Notes under the pieces: model-generated | The model's input: only the letters and a program-made list of their open reading frames with translations | What the model was told of the DNA's origin: nothing | Databases searched by the model: none | Shown: piece by piece, positions 5,902 through 10,234 of the stretch | How positions within the stretch are numbered: the first letter of the stretch is position 1 | Layout: the number at the start of each line of letters is the position of its first letter | Program-made: the position numbers and the translations under genes | Sequence record: PQ511151.1 | DNA from: Escherichia phage NHEP36 | Reading direction: 5' to 3' (one strand) | DNA length: 64,000 nucleotides

Positions 5902-6537
5902 ATGAAAACTACTCCTATTACTATCGCTATTGACGCAATCATAAAACAAGCTTCTTCTTTGGCCGCTATGGCCAAAGTAATTAGTCAAAACCCTGCTCGT
6001 TATAATGCTATTCTAGAAACTCTTCGACGCCCAGGACTTAGTAATTATGAAAGCCGAGTAATTATTACAGGTGTTGGTAAGAATGCTAATATTGCAACTA
6101 AAGCTTCTGAGACATTTGCTTCACTCGGTATCCCGAGTATGTACTTGAACACTGGGCATTATTCTCACGGTGATGCAGGATTCATTGCGCCTAATGATGT
6201 GTTGATTCATATTAGTCGTTCTGGTAAAACTGAAGAAATGATAGGCGTGGCTAAGCATCTTAAAATGATTCGTCCGAACGTCAAACAAATTCTGTTGCAT
6301 TGTAACCCAGACATTCCACAAGAAAATGAAGCCCTTTTTGATTACTCTTTCTGTACAGGCATCGCAGTAGAGGTTGATGAGAATTCTCTGGCTCCGACTA
6401 TGTCCACTACATTGTTGTTAGCGCTTATCGATACGTTTGCTATCAACCTTTCGTCTGAGCGTGGATTTACCTCTAATGACTTCCTTAAGTTCCACCCTGG
6501 CGGTGCACTAGGTGCCATGTTACGAGGCGAACAATGA
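5902..6537 (+). CDS. SIS-domain sugar-phosphate isomerase, KdsD/KpsF-like (predicted D-arabinose-5-phosphate isomerase), no CBS domains
   Basis: 211 aa; ITGVGKNANIATKASETFASLGIPS, HGDAGFIAPNDVLIHISRSGKTEE, LAPTMSTT, RGFTSNDFLKFHPGGALG align motif-for-motif with the KdsD SIS domain as recalled. Confidence 0.85.
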   Translation: MKTTPITIAIDAIIKQASSLAAMAKVISQNPARYNAILETLRRPGLSNYESRVIITGVGKNANIATKASETFASLGIPSMYLNTGHYSHGDAGFIAPNDVLIHISRSGKTEEMIGVAKHLKMIRPNVKQILLHCNPDIPQENEALFDYSFCTGIAVEVDENSLAPTMSTTLLLALIDTFAINLSSERGFTSNDFLKFHPGGALGAMLRGEQ

Positions 6538-6677
6538 AAGCAATAACAATAGGACTTTTACTATTGATGCTTGTCATGACTATCTACTGGAGCTTAACGG
6601 CTCCGGTAATGATTCCAACACTTGTAATTGGATGGATTATGATTGGACTACAAGCAAAGTATGAATGCTTTAACTAG
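6534..6677 (+). CDS. Small hydrophobic membrane peptide (47 aa), translationally coupled to the SIS gene
   Basis: ATGA overlap with upstream stop; two predicted TM stretches; lies where T4 has imm; below ORF-track size cutoff. Confidence 0.3.
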   Translation: MKAITIGLLLLMLVMTIYWSLTAPVMIPTLVIGWIMIGLQAKYECFN

Positions 6678-6718
6678 AATAGTGTACAATACTCCTACTT
6701 ACCAATGAGGACCACAAC

Positions 6719-8404
6719 ATGAAAAAAGCTGTTATTCTTGGTGCTGGACTGGCAACTCGTTTGTATCCAATAACGCATCATATTCCTAAGGTGCTTGTTA
6801 ACTATAAACAAGACACTATTCTGAGCAATTTGTATACAATTTATTCTGACCTTGGCGCAGATGAAATTATTGTAGTAGTTCATTCAAAATTTGCTGAAAC
6901 TGTTCGAGCTTATTGTGAGCAAGAAGGGTTCAATGTGACTATTCGTACAGTTGATGAAGCGTATGGTTCTGCTTATGCTCTTGCTAAATTACACAAAGAT
7001 TTAGACGGCCATAATGTAATTGTTAACTGGTGTGATATTATTCCTGATTTTGGTTCATGGTCTTGGAATGTTAACGCAATCTATGTTAAGGGCGACGAAT
7101 GTCGATATAATTTCGACGGTGAAAATATCACTAACGTAGGTTCAACAGGTGGTAATGTTGTAGGAATTTATCAGTTCAAAGACTGGGAATTCTATATGGG
7201 TTCTACTGATGAGGAAATTCATGAATACTGCAAAGGACGTGATTTCGTAGAATTCCTTTACAGCGGCGCATTCAATAAATCAGAGCTTATGAATCTAATT
7301 GATTTAGGTGATATGCCTAAACTCGAAAAAGCTCATGAAGTTCGTGAACTTAATCGTAGTTTTAATGCAGTTGAAATTGGTGAAGAAACTGTAACTAAAT
7401 TCGCATTAACCGAACAGGGCCGAGCTCTTCAGAAAGATGAGATTTCATGGTATCTTAAAGTGAAATCAGATTCAGTTCCTCAGTTAGTTTCTGTTAATGA
7501 AAATAACTTTGAAATGGAACGCATTAAAGGTAAGCCGGCATTTGAATATATTAAATCCAAATCAAGTCTTGCTCGTCCACAAATTGTTGATGCAATTTTA
7601 GATGCACTGAAATTCAGCACAGACACTTATTTTGTAAGTCCTGAAACTGTTCGCCGTGATTTCACTAAAGAATTCTATACTAAAGTTATTGATCGTTGTG
7701 AAAGTATTCAACCATTGATTGATTCATTTGGTAAAATCACACATGTGAACTACACTAAGATTGGGCGTCTGAAGCCGATGTTGAAACAAGCTTTAGAACA
7801 CCTTATTCGTTATCATAACCGTTCTCAGGGACAGTACTCTGTTATTCATGGTGACCCGAACTTCAGTAATACTATGATTACTGATAATGGCGAAGTCAAG
7901 TTTATAGACCCTCGTGGATATTTTGGTGAAACCAAGATTTACGGGCCAAAATTGTACGATGAAGCTAAAGTGCTTTATGCTGTTTCAGGTTATGATGAAT
8001 TCAACGCTAATCCGACATGGGGACAGTTTACTATTGACGAAACAAGTTGTAATGTGACTATTAACATCAATCCATTAATTTACAAATATGGAAAGCTGAG
8101 TTCGTTTAACGAGTATCATCATTTGGCCGTAGCAATTATCTGGATTGCATTAGGTGGTTATTTCAAGAATAATCCACTTAAAGCGGTAGCCGCATATTAT
8201 AAAGGTATGGAACTTCTGACTAAGCAATTACGTAACATGGGCCGTGTACTTCAAGACGGCTCTATTAGTTATGACGTAGCAGAACCTGTAACGGCTACTC
8301 TGATTACAAAAAATCCTGGTAAATGGGTACTAACTGATAAAGAAACTGGTGTTTCCTATCGTCCAATCGGTGGCGATATCACTCATCAATGGGAACGAAT
8401 CTAA
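6719..8404 (+). CDS. Bifunctional sugar-1-phosphate nucleotidyltransferase (N-term) / APH-fold sugar kinase (C-term)
   Basis: 561 aa; N-term GAGLATRLYPIT..PKVLV (RmlA/GlmU/MurU-type motif); C-term VIHGDPNFSNTMI and FIDPRGYFGE (Brenner and DFG-like motifs of choline/aminoglycoside/anomeric sugar kinases). Confidence 0.8.
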   Translation: MKKAVILGAGLATRLYPITHHIPKVLVNYKQDTILSNLYTIYSDLGADEIIVVVHSKFAETVRAYCEQEGFNVTIRTVDEAYGSAYALAKLHKDLDGHNVIVNWCDIIPDFGSWSWNVNAIYVKGDECRYNFDGENITNVGSTGGNVVGIYQFKDWEFYMGSTDEEIHEYCKGRDFVEFLYSGAFNKSELMNLIDLGDMPKLEKAHEVRELNRSFNAVEIGEETVTKFALTEQGRALQKDEISWYLKVKSDSVPQLVSVNENNFEMERIKGKPAFEYIKSKSSLARPQIVDAILDALKFSTDTYFVSPETVRRDFTKEFYTKVIDRCESIQPLIDSFGKITHVNYTKIGRLKPMLKQALEHLIRYHNRSQGQYSVIHGDPNFSNTMITDNGEVKFIDPRGYFGETKIYGPKLYDEAKVLYAVSGYDEFNANPTWGQFTIDETSCNVTININPLIYKYGKLSSFNEYHHLAVAIIWIALGGYFKNNPLKAVAAYYKGMELLTKQLRNMGRVLQDGSISYDVAEPVTATLITKNPGKWVLTDKETGVSYRPIGGDITHQWERI

Positions 8405-8790: not shown

Positions 8791-8846
8791 TAATTTAAGT
8801 AAGACCTGCAAAAACCATCGCATCAATTAACGTGAGATGCAAAAAA

Positions 8847-10007
8847 ATGAATACTTTTAAAATTGGAACGAATTTTGATTTAGCTCTTCTTGATAAAATC
8901 GTAGAGCTCAATAAAACTTATCCTAATAGCTTGATAAACGAAGTATATGGCTCTACAAGAGAAATGGCTTTTGTAGCAGCCAGACCTGATTTTAGGCTTC
9001 CTGACGTTGACAAAAAGATGTTAGAAGATTACGTTAAACGTTGTAACGAATTAGGTATTTGCTTTAACTATACACTCAACACGATAAATCCTGGTTCAAA
9101 AAGAGAATTAGTTGAGTGGAAGAAGAAAGCTATTCAGGATTATGTTCAGTATCTTTGGTCAATAGGCGTATGGCGTATTACTATCGCTAACCCTGTTGTT
9201 ATGGAAATTGTTCGTGAAGTCAATAAAGACATTGAGATTGAAGTTTCAACAATTCTACATGTCGATGCTGTAACTCAAATCAAATACTTGCATGACCAGT
9301 ATAATATCAAAAAGGTCTGCTGTGGAATTCATAAGAACCGTTCAGTTTCTTTCCTGAAGCGTGCAGCAGAGTTTTGCAATAAGAACAATATAATATTTGA
9401 AGTTCTTGTAAATGAGTTCTGTTCTAATGCTGGTAAAGGGTATACAACACATTGTAGCTATCGTGACTCTTGCTATATTTTCCATAGTACCGATGTTACA
9501 GCTGATGATGCTAAATCCTTAAATGGATATCCTATGCAGCACTGTATTAAAGCTCGTGATACAGATCCATTTAACTGGTTGAGAACTCGTTTTGTTCGTC
9601 CACAAGATTTGAAACTTTATAATGATATTGGTATCACTCAATTCAAAGTTTCAGGACGTACAGGTAGCACCGACTACATTTTGAAAGTTCTTGAAGCATA
9701 CGCTTCTGAAAAGTTTGAAGGTAATTTGTTAGAACTGTGGAAGCCTTTAGAGACCATTTTCACTCTTGAAAATGAGACCGAGTTTTCACATACGGTAAAT
9801 ATTGAAACCTCTTTGTTAGACGGCTTTTTAGAAAAAAGGTGGTTCAGACATCCAGATTTCGATTGTGCTAATGAAATCTGCGGGACGACGTGTACATATT
9901 GTGAAAGATATTATAAACGTCAGTTATCTAAAAATGGGTTATCAGAAAATTCTATATCTATTATTGATATAACTAACTCTGACGACGCTTTGAGGTACCC
10001 AGAATGA
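8847..10007 (+). CDS. Cys-rich protein of unknown function; possible peptidase-U32-like (RlhA/TrhP/UbiU-type) fold
   Basis: 386 aa; EVLVNEFCSNAGKGYTTHCSYRDSC resembles the U32 signature; VSTILHV resembles HASTQ; C-terminal CANEICGTTCTYC cluster; assignment by eye only. Confidence 0.35.
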   Translation: MNTFKIGTNFDLALLDKIVELNKTYPNSLINEVYGSTREMAFVAARPDFRLPDVDKKMLEDYVKRCNELGICFNYTLNTINPGSKRELVEWKKKAIQDYVQYLWSIGVWRITIANPVVMEIVREVNKDIEIEVSTILHVDAVTQIKYLHDQYNIKKVCCGIHKNRSVSFLKRAAEFCNKNNIIFEVLVNEFCSNAGKGYTTHCSYRDSCYIFHSTDVTADDAKSLNGYPMQHCIKARDTDPFNWLRTRFVRPQDLKLYNDIGITQFKVSGRTGSTDYILKVLEAYASEKFEGNLLELWKPLETIFTLENETEFSHTVNIETSLLDGFLEKRWFRHPDFDCANEICGTTCTYCERYYKRQLSKNGLSENSISIIDITNSDDALRYPE

Positions 10008-10234
10008 TTTCTAGAAAAACTTTTAACCACCAACTTAATGAAGAGATTTTGACTATTAAAATTAACAGCAACGAACAAATTCTTAAAAAGGCCCATAAGG
10101 GCCTTTTTGAAACTAAAGCGATTAAAGAACCTGTTCAACTAGAATACTATGTCGACGCATTCCTTCATAGTGTCCTTGGAAGTATTGATGCCGAAGCTCT
10201 ACGTTATATCAACATCGCTAAGAAATTCAAATAA
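10004..10234 (+). CDS. Hypothetical protein
   Basis: 76 aa; ATGA overlap with upstream gene. Confidence 0.5.
   Translation: MISRKTFNHQLNEEILTIKINSNEQILKKAHKGLFETKAIKEPVQLEYYVDAFLHSVLGSIDAEALRYINIAKKFK

Follow-up and report, generated by a model that had tools for sequence, protein, structure and literature searches.

Which modification of phage DNA is specified by the genes that follow DNA polymerase gene 43 in Escherichia phage NHEP36, and what is contributed by the cysteine-rich protein encoded among them? The stretch analyzed here (sequence record PQ511151.1, 64,000 nucleotides, referred to below as the window) carries five long, co-oriented open reading frames (ORFs) on the plus strand at positions 5902-10234, flanked by the polymerase gene (3150-5861) and a thymidylate-synthase-like gene (10276-10992). 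A sequence-only reading had interpreted these ORFs as a cassette for making an activated pentose, most simply arabinose, that would be attached to 5-hydroxymethylcytosine (hmC). We are highly confident that the block is the arabinosyl-5-hydroxycytosine (arabinosyl-5hoC) DNA hypermodification system of RB69-like phages. The cysteine-rich protein is the homologue of RB69 gp50, a member of the U32 family. Homology and gene neighbourhood make it somewhat more likely than not that gp50 is a prephenate-dependent, O2-independent pyrimidine C5 hydroxylase, providing a second route to the 5-hydroxypyrimidine.

The identity of the base was derived from the thymidylate-synthase-like gene, which the sequence-only reading had called gene 42, dCMP hydroxymethylase. 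Its product corresponds to the 5-hydroxy-dCMP synthase gp48 of RB69 and matched PDB entry 9iqc at E 4.5e-162 (9iqc, 9ir2 and 9iqu are crystal structures of near-identical proteins). In E. coli ThyA numbering, the substitutions L143E and D169N are present and the catalytic cysteine C146 is kept; position D169 is therefore Asn rather than the Asp of gp42-type enzymes. The alignment is gapped at N177, where the window protein most likely has Asp, judging from the Asp in the aligned QLD segment. RB69 gp48 makes 5-hydroxy-dCMP, takes up 18O from O2 and binds flavin (PMC13326640). By mass spectrometry (MS) and nuclear magnetic resonance (NMR), the DNA of RB69 and of Acinetobacter phage DLP3 was found to contain 5-hydroxycytosine in mono- and poly-arabinosylated form, with an ether link at C5 (Lee et al. 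NAR 2026, PMC13326640), with DLP3 making tri-arabinosyl-5hoC (PMC13326640). Replacement of dC by mono- and di-arabosyl-5-hydroxy-dC has been shown for the virion DNA of RB69 and of Mosigvirus NP. Given 99.2% identity to RB69 gp48, the modified base of the window is read as arabinosyl-5hoC, not arabinosyl-hmC; arabinose as the pentose on cytosine stands from the earlier reading, and hmC as the base does not.

In that earlier model, arabinose was placed onto hmC supplied by a T4-type gene 42, and a HAD-type phosphatase dephosphorylated arabinose-5-phosphate (Ara5P) before a kinase acted at C1. The RB69 ThyA-superfamily gene is indeed annotated 'similar to dCMP hydroxymethylase', and ara-hmC was reported by Thomas 2018, but the model is very improbable in view of the 5-hydroxy-dCMP product of RB69 gp48 with its 18O from O2 and the ether link straight to C5 seen by NMR and MS (PMC13326640). 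The D169N/L143E signature of the window protein also counts against it, as does the kinase-then-phosphatase order given for AfhE and AfhF of phage HY126 in PMC13326640.

The cassette is not a chance feature, since it is 97.6-98.5% identical in 152 full-length phage records. They come from a megablast search with the window: among 191 matching phage records, 152 had 80% or more of the query covered, with identities from 97.6% (RB69) to 98.5%. Judged by its sequence, the window is that of an RB69-like Mosigvirus, and the ORF calls together with the 152 records confirm the co-oriented plus-strand genes after gene 43. At the protein level, identity to RB69 is 100% for the SIS protein, 97.7% for HAD, 99.0% for U32, 99.2% for the ThyA-like protein and 98.9% for the kinase; gp49, at 89.9%, is the exception in a cluster whose other proteins are 98-100% identical. 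The functional cluster reaches 12441, beyond the stretch originally considered. The features of the system are as follows.

5902-6537, plus strand: SIS arabinose-5-phosphate isomerase, RB69 gp55 homologue (Pfam, NCBIfam, PDB, motifs)
6534-6677, plus strand: 47-aa hydrophobic ORF, phrog_3610 (conserved; start overlaps the SIS stop, ATGA)
6719-8404, plus strand: nucleotidyltransferase (N-terminal) and sugar kinase (C-terminal) of the RB69 gp53:52/HY126 AfhE type (Pfam, PDB, motifs)
8404-8790, plus strand: HAD-type phosphatase of the RB69 gp51/AfhF type (PDB 9iqw, NCBIfam, DVDD motif I)
8847-10007, plus strand: Peptidase_U32-family Fe-S-type protein, RB69 gp50, function predicted (Pfam, AF2, hhalign, gene neighbourhood)
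10004-10234, plus strand: gp49, 76 aa, phrog_8601 (start overlaps the U32 stop, ATGA)
10276-10992, plus strand: ThyA-superfamily 5-hydroxy-dCMP synthase, RB69 gp48, flavin/O2-dependent (PDB 9iqc, 99.2% to RB69 gp48)
10992-11891, plus strand: DNA arabinosyltransferase 1, RB69 gp47:46 homologue, phrog_3891 (299-aa ORF; assignment from PMC13326640)
11893-12441, plus strand: thymidylate-kinase-like nucleotide kinase, RB69 gp45 (phrog_761 thymidylate kinase, E 3.6e-45; 98.9% to RB69 gp45)
16162-16837, plus strand: imm and imm.1 (sp/dmd neighbourhood, as in RB69)
19880-20398, plus strand: gp56 dCTPase (tblastn, 97.1% to RB69p028; role per PMC13326640 Table 1)
31497-32594, plus strand: second DNA arabinosyltransferase, RB69 ORF003c/gp3 homologue, RB69p003 (tblastn, 98.6%, 366/366 aa), between gene 39 and rIIA

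Of the four proteins that the sequence-only reading had grouped in the block, three give the route from ribulose-5-phosphate (Ru5P) to NDP-arabinose; the cysteine-rich protein falls outside it. The profile searches proposed with that reading were run, and the family assignments to SIS, NTP_transferase, kinase, HAD and U32 all held. The 211-aa SIS protein gave 41.9 bits to Pfam SIS and, within the SIS domain alone, matched the NCBIfam models KpsF/GutQ (E 2e-32) and KdsD (E 7e-31); its best PDB matches were 3etn (E 2.6e-25) and 2xhz (E 3.5e-19). No tandem CBS domains were found, the match covering positions 47-202 of the 328-position KdsD model, far under the equivalog cut-off. In this respect gp55 differs from KdsD and GutQ and resembles the single-domain arabinose-5-phosphate isomerase of Bacteroides fragilis (3etn). 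With these isomerases it aligns across the whole SIS domain, and it keeps the conserved Lys, Ser/Thr-loop and His-Pro-Gly-Gly motifs (GVGKN, SRSGKTEE and HPGGALG).

The fusion protein carries an NTP_transferase domain (39.1 bits, residues 3-99) followed by weak APH/choline-kinase-like matches at residues 308-409, and the protein matched PDB 1jyk at E 2e-5. The motifs GAGLATRL (residue 8), HGDPNFSN (377) and IDPRG (396) are present, and the nucleotidyltransferase-kinase architecture proposed for it is borne out. By analogy with the function given in PMC13326640, it would make arabinose-1,5-bisphosphate (Ara-1,5-P2) from Ara5P, and UDP-arabinofuranose (UDP-Araf) from arabinose-1-phosphate (Ara1P) and UTP. 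The HAD protein, likewise recognized correctly as a small phosphatase, matched PDB 9iqw at E 1.4e-86 (127 of 129 aligned residues identical, ∼98%) and the NCBIfam EcbF/BcbF capsule phosphatase model at E 2.4e-13, with DVDD as motif I.

The published order of steps differs from the one first proposed, in which dephosphorylation preceded anomeric phosphorylation. In PMC13326640, which cites He et al. 2026 on phage HY126, an isomerase converts Ru5P to Ara5P, the kinase domain of AfhE/gp52:53 makes Ara-1,5-P2, the HAD enzyme AfhF/gp51 yields Ara1P, and the nucleotidyltransferase domain forms UDP-Araf; the C1 kinase thus comes first and the 5-phosphatase second. The AfhE and AfhF steps of HY126 are described there as biochemically demonstrated, and RB69 and DLP3 are likewise published as using this route. 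Thomas et al. 2018 had earlier found arabinose in RB69 DNA and proposed ORF055c and the re-sequenced ORF53_52c for UDP-arabinose synthesis, with ORF003c as transferase. The sequence-only reading has the sugar-nucleotide part right, and that part is in the literature already (Thomas 2018; Lee et al. NAR 2026, with reference to He et al. 2026). A paper of June 2026 still terms the Mosigvirus pathway incompletely characterised.

A transferase, which the sequence-only reading had not recognized at the T4 bgt position, is encoded at 10992-11891, and a second at 31497-32594. The first is unseen by Pfam and a PDB sequence search with it returned no match; RB69 gp46:47 has been assigned as a GT-B-like arabinosyltransferase (PMC13326640), and homologues of this glycosyltransferase adjoin U32 genes in distant phages. 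Both the gp56 dCTPase and the second arabinosyltransferase were located in the window by tblastn.

Assembled from these parts, the pathway would run as follows. The isomerase gp55 would convert ribulose-5-phosphate to Ara5P, the C-terminal kinase of gp53:52 would phosphorylate Ara5P to Ara-1,5-P2, gp51 would strip the 5-phosphate, and the N-terminal nucleotidyltransferase of gp53:52 would form UDP-Araf. In parallel, gp48 would hydroxylate dCMP at C5 with flavin and O2, kinases would raise 5-hydroxy-dCMP to the triphosphate, and the polymerase would insert 5-hydroxy-dCTP while gp56 destroys dCTP; gp47:46 and the gp3 homologue would then place one or two arabinoses onto the 5-hydroxyl in DNA. 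The core steps have been shown elsewhere, on proteins 98-100% identical to these or on near-identical HY126 proteins. The window has the same genes in the same order as the RB69 gp45-gp55/HY126 Afh cluster (Thomas 2018; Lee et al. NAR 2026; He et al. Nat Chem Biol 2026), with essentially no difference from the RB69 cluster beyond the intact fusion and glycosyltransferase ORFs and an A7 rather than an A6 tract. The system also parallels that for glucosyl-hmC in T4, in that it occupies the same neighbourhood, a ThyA-superfamily enzyme modifies dCMP, gp56 clears dCTP and glycosyltransferases act on DNA. It differs in the base, which is made here as 5-hydroxycytosine by flavin and O2 and in T4 as 5-hydroxymethylcytosine by folate, and in the sugar donor. 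T4 relies on host UDP-glucose, gp42 and alpha- and beta-glucosyltransferases, whereas the arabinose donor is absent from host metabolites, so its synthesis is encoded by the phage.

The second part of the question concerns gp50. The cysteine-rich protein of the sequence-only reading proved to belong to Pfam Peptidase_U32 (42.2 bits against a cut-off of 22.4), and it has no step in the sugar pathway. In an alignment of 43 homologues, ten cysteines of the 386-aa protein are invariant (C158, C177, C192, C203, C209, C233 and C340-X4-C345-X3-C349-X2-C352), and an iron-sulfur (Fe-S) cluster is a likely prediction. The AlphaFold2 (AF2) model (pLDDT 91.8, pTM 0.90) has as its top PDB fold the U32 protein Mk0906 (5d88, E 2e-7, target TM 0.72). 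When the gp50 profile was compared by hhalign with the E. coli U32 proteins, RlhA was the best match (E 1.4e-5 over 196 columns). A PDB sequence search with gp50 returned nothing, and Foldseek against BFVD was uninformative beyond self-matches. Across Straboviridae other than Mosigvirus, no cluster protein is as well conserved as gp50, whose mean identity is 84.5% as against 79.9% for gp48 and 72.3% for DNA polymerase.

The characterised E. coli U32 proteins serve O2-independent hydroxylations that need prephenate and Fe-S clusters. RlhA is needed for 5-hydroxycytidine (ho5C) at C2501 of 23S rRNA, and TrhP for 5-hydroxyuridine (ho5U34) in tRNA, where it is paired with the O2-dependent TrhO; direct hydroxylase activity of RlhA and TrhP has not been reconstituted. 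UbiU and UbiV act in anaerobic ubiquinone hydroxylations with oxygen from prephenate, and have UbiH, UbiF and UbiI as O2-dependent counterparts. The base needed by the phage has its ribo-analogue in the RlhA product. Like these proteins, gp50 has a U32 domain, a TIM-barrel fold and conserved cysteines in the motif region, and it shares with RlhA a C-terminal cysteine cluster. Its proposed chemistry is, as for RlhA and TrhP, hydroxylation at pyrimidine C5, and its pairing with an O2-dependent enzyme of the same proposed function recalls that of TrhP with TrhO. It is unlike RlhA, TrhP and UbiU/V in being very distant in sequence and viral, in its non-canonical cysteine spacing, and in its putative deoxynucleotide or DNA substrate.

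Both RefSeq and PHROGs (phrog_5757) label gp50 a 'peptidase', and those annotations are what would favour a collagenase-like U32 peptidase with no part in DNA modification. We find that barely credible for a protein with ten invariant cysteines, always located within nucleotide and glycosylation modules, with neither signal peptide nor structural-gene context, whose characterised E. coli relatives serve hydroxylation pathways.

Gene neighbourhood is the other part of the argument for hydroxylation. A tblastn search gave gp50 homologues in 221 phage records, none of them under 80% identity, and gp48 homologues in 345. In 51 Straboviridae records (phages of Klebsiella, Serratia, Yersinia, Enterobacter, Edwardsiella, Erwinia, Pectobacterium, Shewanella, Providencia and Morganella) a chorismate mutase (CM) gene overlaps the U32 gene or lies within ∼0.4 kb of it, directly upstream of the ThyA-like gene. 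CM genes adjoining U32 scored 44.6 and 40.9 bits to CM_2 (cut-off 27), and Proteus phages have a more diverged copy. Chorismate mutase produces prephenate. Acinetobacter phages differ: since the organism tally for U32 lists no Acinetobacter record, a U32 gene can be present in no more than 3 of the 57 Acinetobacter phage records that contain a gp48 homologue. DLP3, checked directly, has the SIS, fusion, HAD, ThyA-like, glycosyltransferase and kinase genes and no U32.

Homologues 44-58% identical to gp50 are common in metagenomic phage contigs. We scanned 36 loci outside Straboviridae (L009-L015, L033 and L035-L062, from phages, metagenomes and metagenome-assembled genomes (MAGs)) with hidden Markov models built from the cluster proteins, over ±6-10 kb per contig. 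A gp46:47-like glycosyltransferase was found at 24 of the 36 and a gp45/Tmk-like kinase at 26, the fusion enzyme at no fewer than 16 and the SIS gene at no fewer than nine. Seven loci have the bare triad of kinase, glycosyltransferase and U32, lacking SIS and fusion genes, and in these triads U32 holds the slot of gp48 in Straboviridae. In two of the seven the triad is followed by a TET-associated glycosyltransferase (33.9 bits; cut-off 27.5), and one of these two also has a UDP-galactopyranose mutase. A chorismate mutase and/or DAHP synthase lies beside U32 at a third of the loci (12/36), in three cases as a DAHP synthase-CM fusion with both domains above the Pfam cut-offs. Assignment of the DAHP_synth_1 neighbours as Ara5P-using KDO8P synthases was rejected, as NCBIfam gave 237 bits for DAHP synthase against 63 for KDO8P synthase. 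Locus L046 reads glycosyltransferase, SIS, fusion, kinase, DAHP synthase-CM, HAD, U32, which amounts to the whole RB69 sugar pathway with no ThyA-like gene. Within ±6-10 kb, a ThyA of the 5-hydroxy-dCMP synthase type was found at none of the 36 loci. The sole ThyA-family match, at L035, was rejected as a hydroxylase, since its L143, D169 and N177 are those of a canonical thymidylate synthase (243.6 bits).

Among 100,044 species genomes, the gp50 clade was found in seven records only. Lineages of anaerobes account for six (Erysipelotrichales, Bacillota, Lachnospiraceae, two Romboutsia and Phocaeicola faecalis), and a candidate-division BRC1 MAG of unknown physiology for the seventh. Genes for U32, CM, glycosyltransferase and kinase are present at the Erysipelotrichales locus and at the longer of the two Romboutsia loci (L076), whereas the short Romboutsia contig (L073) carries U32 and CM only.

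Taken by host, the slot beside the kinase and first glycosyltransferase is filled by the flavin/O2-dependent ThyA-like enzyme in phages of aerobes; by U32, often with a prephenate-supply gene (DAHP synthase and/or CM), in phages of strict anaerobes; and by both in most T4-like phages whose hosts are facultative anaerobes, a pairing that would mirror TrhO/TrhP and UbiH,F,I/UbiU,V. Such a distribution would be expected of an O2-independent, prephenate-dependent 5-hydroxypyrimidine synthase, and coupling of the gp50 clade to prephenate supply in the genomes of relatives is a likeness to the prephenate-dependent U32 enzymes. As reported for RlhA, TrhP and UbiU/V, gp50 would take its oxygen from host prephenate, and it would allow full modification of the DNA in the anoxic gut, where gp48 cannot work. 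Its linkage to a nucleotide kinase makes dCMP the most likely substrate. The recurrence of that kinase, of dCMP deaminase, dUTPase/DCD, NT5C and deoxynucleoside kinase (dNK) beside U32 suggests action at the nucleotide level. The wider proposal is that gp50 founds a virus-borne U32 Fe-S clade hydroxylating C5 of a deoxypyrimidine nucleotide (dCMP here) with prephenate, as the sole route in strict-anaerobe phages and together with the O2-dependent enzyme in RB69-like phages, while strict-aerobe phages would rely on the flavin/O2 ThyA-like enzyme alone; we consider its chances about even.

Hydroxylation of cytosine already in DNA, after replication, would be closer to the precedents of RlhA and TrhP, since the characterised pyrimidine-hydroxylating U32 proteins act on polynucleotides; at loci L014 and L041, moreover, U32 abuts a TET-associated glycosyltransferase, of a family that partners DNA-level oxidases. 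We nevertheless regard DNA as an unlikely substrate of gp50. The long C-terminal extension of RlhA is missing (386 as against 653 aa), the linkage to a dNMP-kinase-like gene is consistent and is often joined by dCMP deaminase, dUTPase/DCD, NT5C or dNK, and the phage dCTPase would leave little C in DNA to be hydroxylated.

Several clade members lie in settings that bear on the substrate. In L009 (7447-9086) and L012 (5504-7083) U32 directly follows a dCMP deaminase gene, the two overlapping in L009; these contigs encode a PolIII-alpha replicase and one is 466 kb long. Given this deaminase linkage, the nucleotide hydroxylated by some clade members may be dUMP instead of dCMP. In L014 (6001-8000) and L041 (10001-16284) U32 overlaps the start of the TET-associated glycosyltransferase, and a dUTPase/DCD, a second TET-associated glycosyltransferase and a UDP-galactopyranose mutase follow, so that the cluster resembles one for galactofuranose-type hypermodification in which U32 takes the position expected of a TET/JBP oxidase. 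At L010 (8001-14360) and in L071, a Bacillota MAG, a gp50-clade U32 was found with NT5C, an NMN transporter, a deoxynucleoside kinase and an AlaX-like protein, and no glycosyltransferase. A radical SAM/SPASM enzyme, a very divergent second U32 paralogue and a nucleoside deoxyribosyltransferase are also present, a nucleoside-centred context.

Assignment of gp50 as a prephenate-dependent C5 hydroxylase has to be weighed against a number of observations. The hhalign matches to TrhP (E 3e-3) and UbiU (E 9e-3) are of low probability, and the NCBIfam search gave no RlhA or TrhP match, only UbiU at E 9e-4. In the MAFFT alignment C192, C203 and C209 fall on three of the four canonical U32 cysteine positions, with Gly at RlhA C176; the hhalign register differs, pairing C203/C209 with RlhA C169/C176 and leaving the canonical four-Cys motif out of register. 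No phage CM was found in the window or in any Mosigvirus, so that the prephenate link rests on relatives, and Mosigviruses would have to draw prephenate from host PheA/TyrA. U32 is missing, and gp48 present, in Dhakavirus coliphages such as VR5 and in Kosakonia phage 305, although their hosts are facultative anaerobes, and the host correlation inside Straboviridae reflects few independent events. Note also that, as ±6-10 kb was examined, a ThyA-like gene could lie elsewhere on the distant contigs. Finally, gp50 is listed as a 'sugar or heterocycle reductase' in Table 1 of PMC13326640.

This label agrees with a role in the arabinose branch as a redox enzyme that modifies a sugar or heterocycle, for example by tailoring the pentose before or after transfer. 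Consistent with such a role, the gene sits between the sugar genes and the base genes, and SIS and the fusion enzyme accompany many of the distant homologues. It is poorly reconciled with the seven distant kinase-glycosyltransferase-U32 loci in which SIS and fusion genes are missing, with the production of tri-arabinosyl-5hoC by DLP3 without U32, and with the linkage to chorismate mutase and DAHP synthase, which has no rationale in pentose chemistry; the arabinose of RB69 DNA, moreover, requires no extra redox step. A redox function in the sugar branch accordingly appears doubtful to us. The hydroxylase assignment of gp50 is apparently unpublished. The Discussion of PMC13326640 raises the RNA hydroxylation pathways of RlhA and TrhP and connects gp50 to neither, and no literature that connects phage DNA modification to U32, prephenate or chorismate mutase was found in the text searched, outside which lie He et al. 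2026 and Mahler et al. 2025.

The small protein gp49 has no cysteine and no Pfam match. Its homologues were found only in Mosigvirus and in PM2-like and TG1-like phages, in the latter two groups between U32 and chorismate mutase, and since it was not found at distant U32 loci, it is not a core partner of U32. We rejected gp49 as a diverged AroQ chorismate mutase, there being no CM_2 match even at E 10; this identity is also excluded by its homology to PM2 gp045 and TG1_051, small ORFs that lie between U32 and a separate CM gene. The 47-aa ORF at 6534-6677, 55-66% identical in most Straboviridae genera examined and 45% in PM2, is strongly hydrophobic and is a conserved membrane ORF. In VR5 it lies after imm, and the RB69 annotation has a shorter ORF, ORF054c, at its position.

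Gene boundaries were assigned as follows. For the HAD gene the most likely start is ATG 8404, which shares 1 nt with the upstream stop codon, in agreement with the RB69 annotation and with the crystallised protein (PDB 9iqw). The conserved U32 start is ATG 8847. Just 5' of it, in the stretch 8837-8849, is a homopolymer of seven A, of which RB69 has six, so that the MQKM start annotated for U32 in RB69 is out of frame in the window and in IMG/VR locus L019. Translational coupling, claimed for the block as a whole, is tight at SIS/47-aa ORF, fusion/HAD, U32/gp49 and gp48/glycosyltransferase, but fails before the fusion gene, U32 and gp48, which are preceded by gaps of 41-183 nt. The fusion gene (561 aa) and the first glycosyltransferase gene (299 aa) are intact single ORFs here and are split in the RB69 GenBank record (ORF053c/052c and ORF047c/046c). 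In the published view these splits are sequencing errors, with which the intact ORFs of the window agree, the 561-aa fusion ORF matching the corrected RB69 sequence. A promoter and terminator scan found no more sites than in shuffled sequence.

The genes imm and imm.1, which sit between genes 43 and 42 in T4, have moved to 16162-16837 here; in Dhakavirus VR5 imm is still beside gene 43, and the arabinose genes are carried as well. In Serratia phage LC53 a putative homing endonuclease (L002 5352-5990) lies between the HAD and U32 genes, one sign that this junction is an insertion hot spot among these phages.

As first read, the cassette is a rediscovery of a published system; its value is as an example that was placed correctly and, for the most part, read correctly. 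O2 is required by the one demonstrated route to 5-hydroxy-dCMP, although these coliphages destroy dCTP and multiply in the gut. If gp50 acts as proposed, an O2-independent hydroxylase would explain full modification of the DNA in the gut. Prephenate-dependent hydroxylation would extend from RNA and quinones to DNA precursors, with gp50 as the first U32 hydroxylase acting on them. The combination of U32 with a gp46:47-type glycosyltransferase and a Tmk-like kinase, with or without CM/DAHP synthase, would then be a sequence marker for hypermodified genomes of anaerobe phages. Phages of anaerobic hosts would hold a large unexplored reservoir of 5-hydroxypyrimidine hypermodification, with a bearing on evasion of restriction and CRISPR, on phage therapy and on phage engineering.

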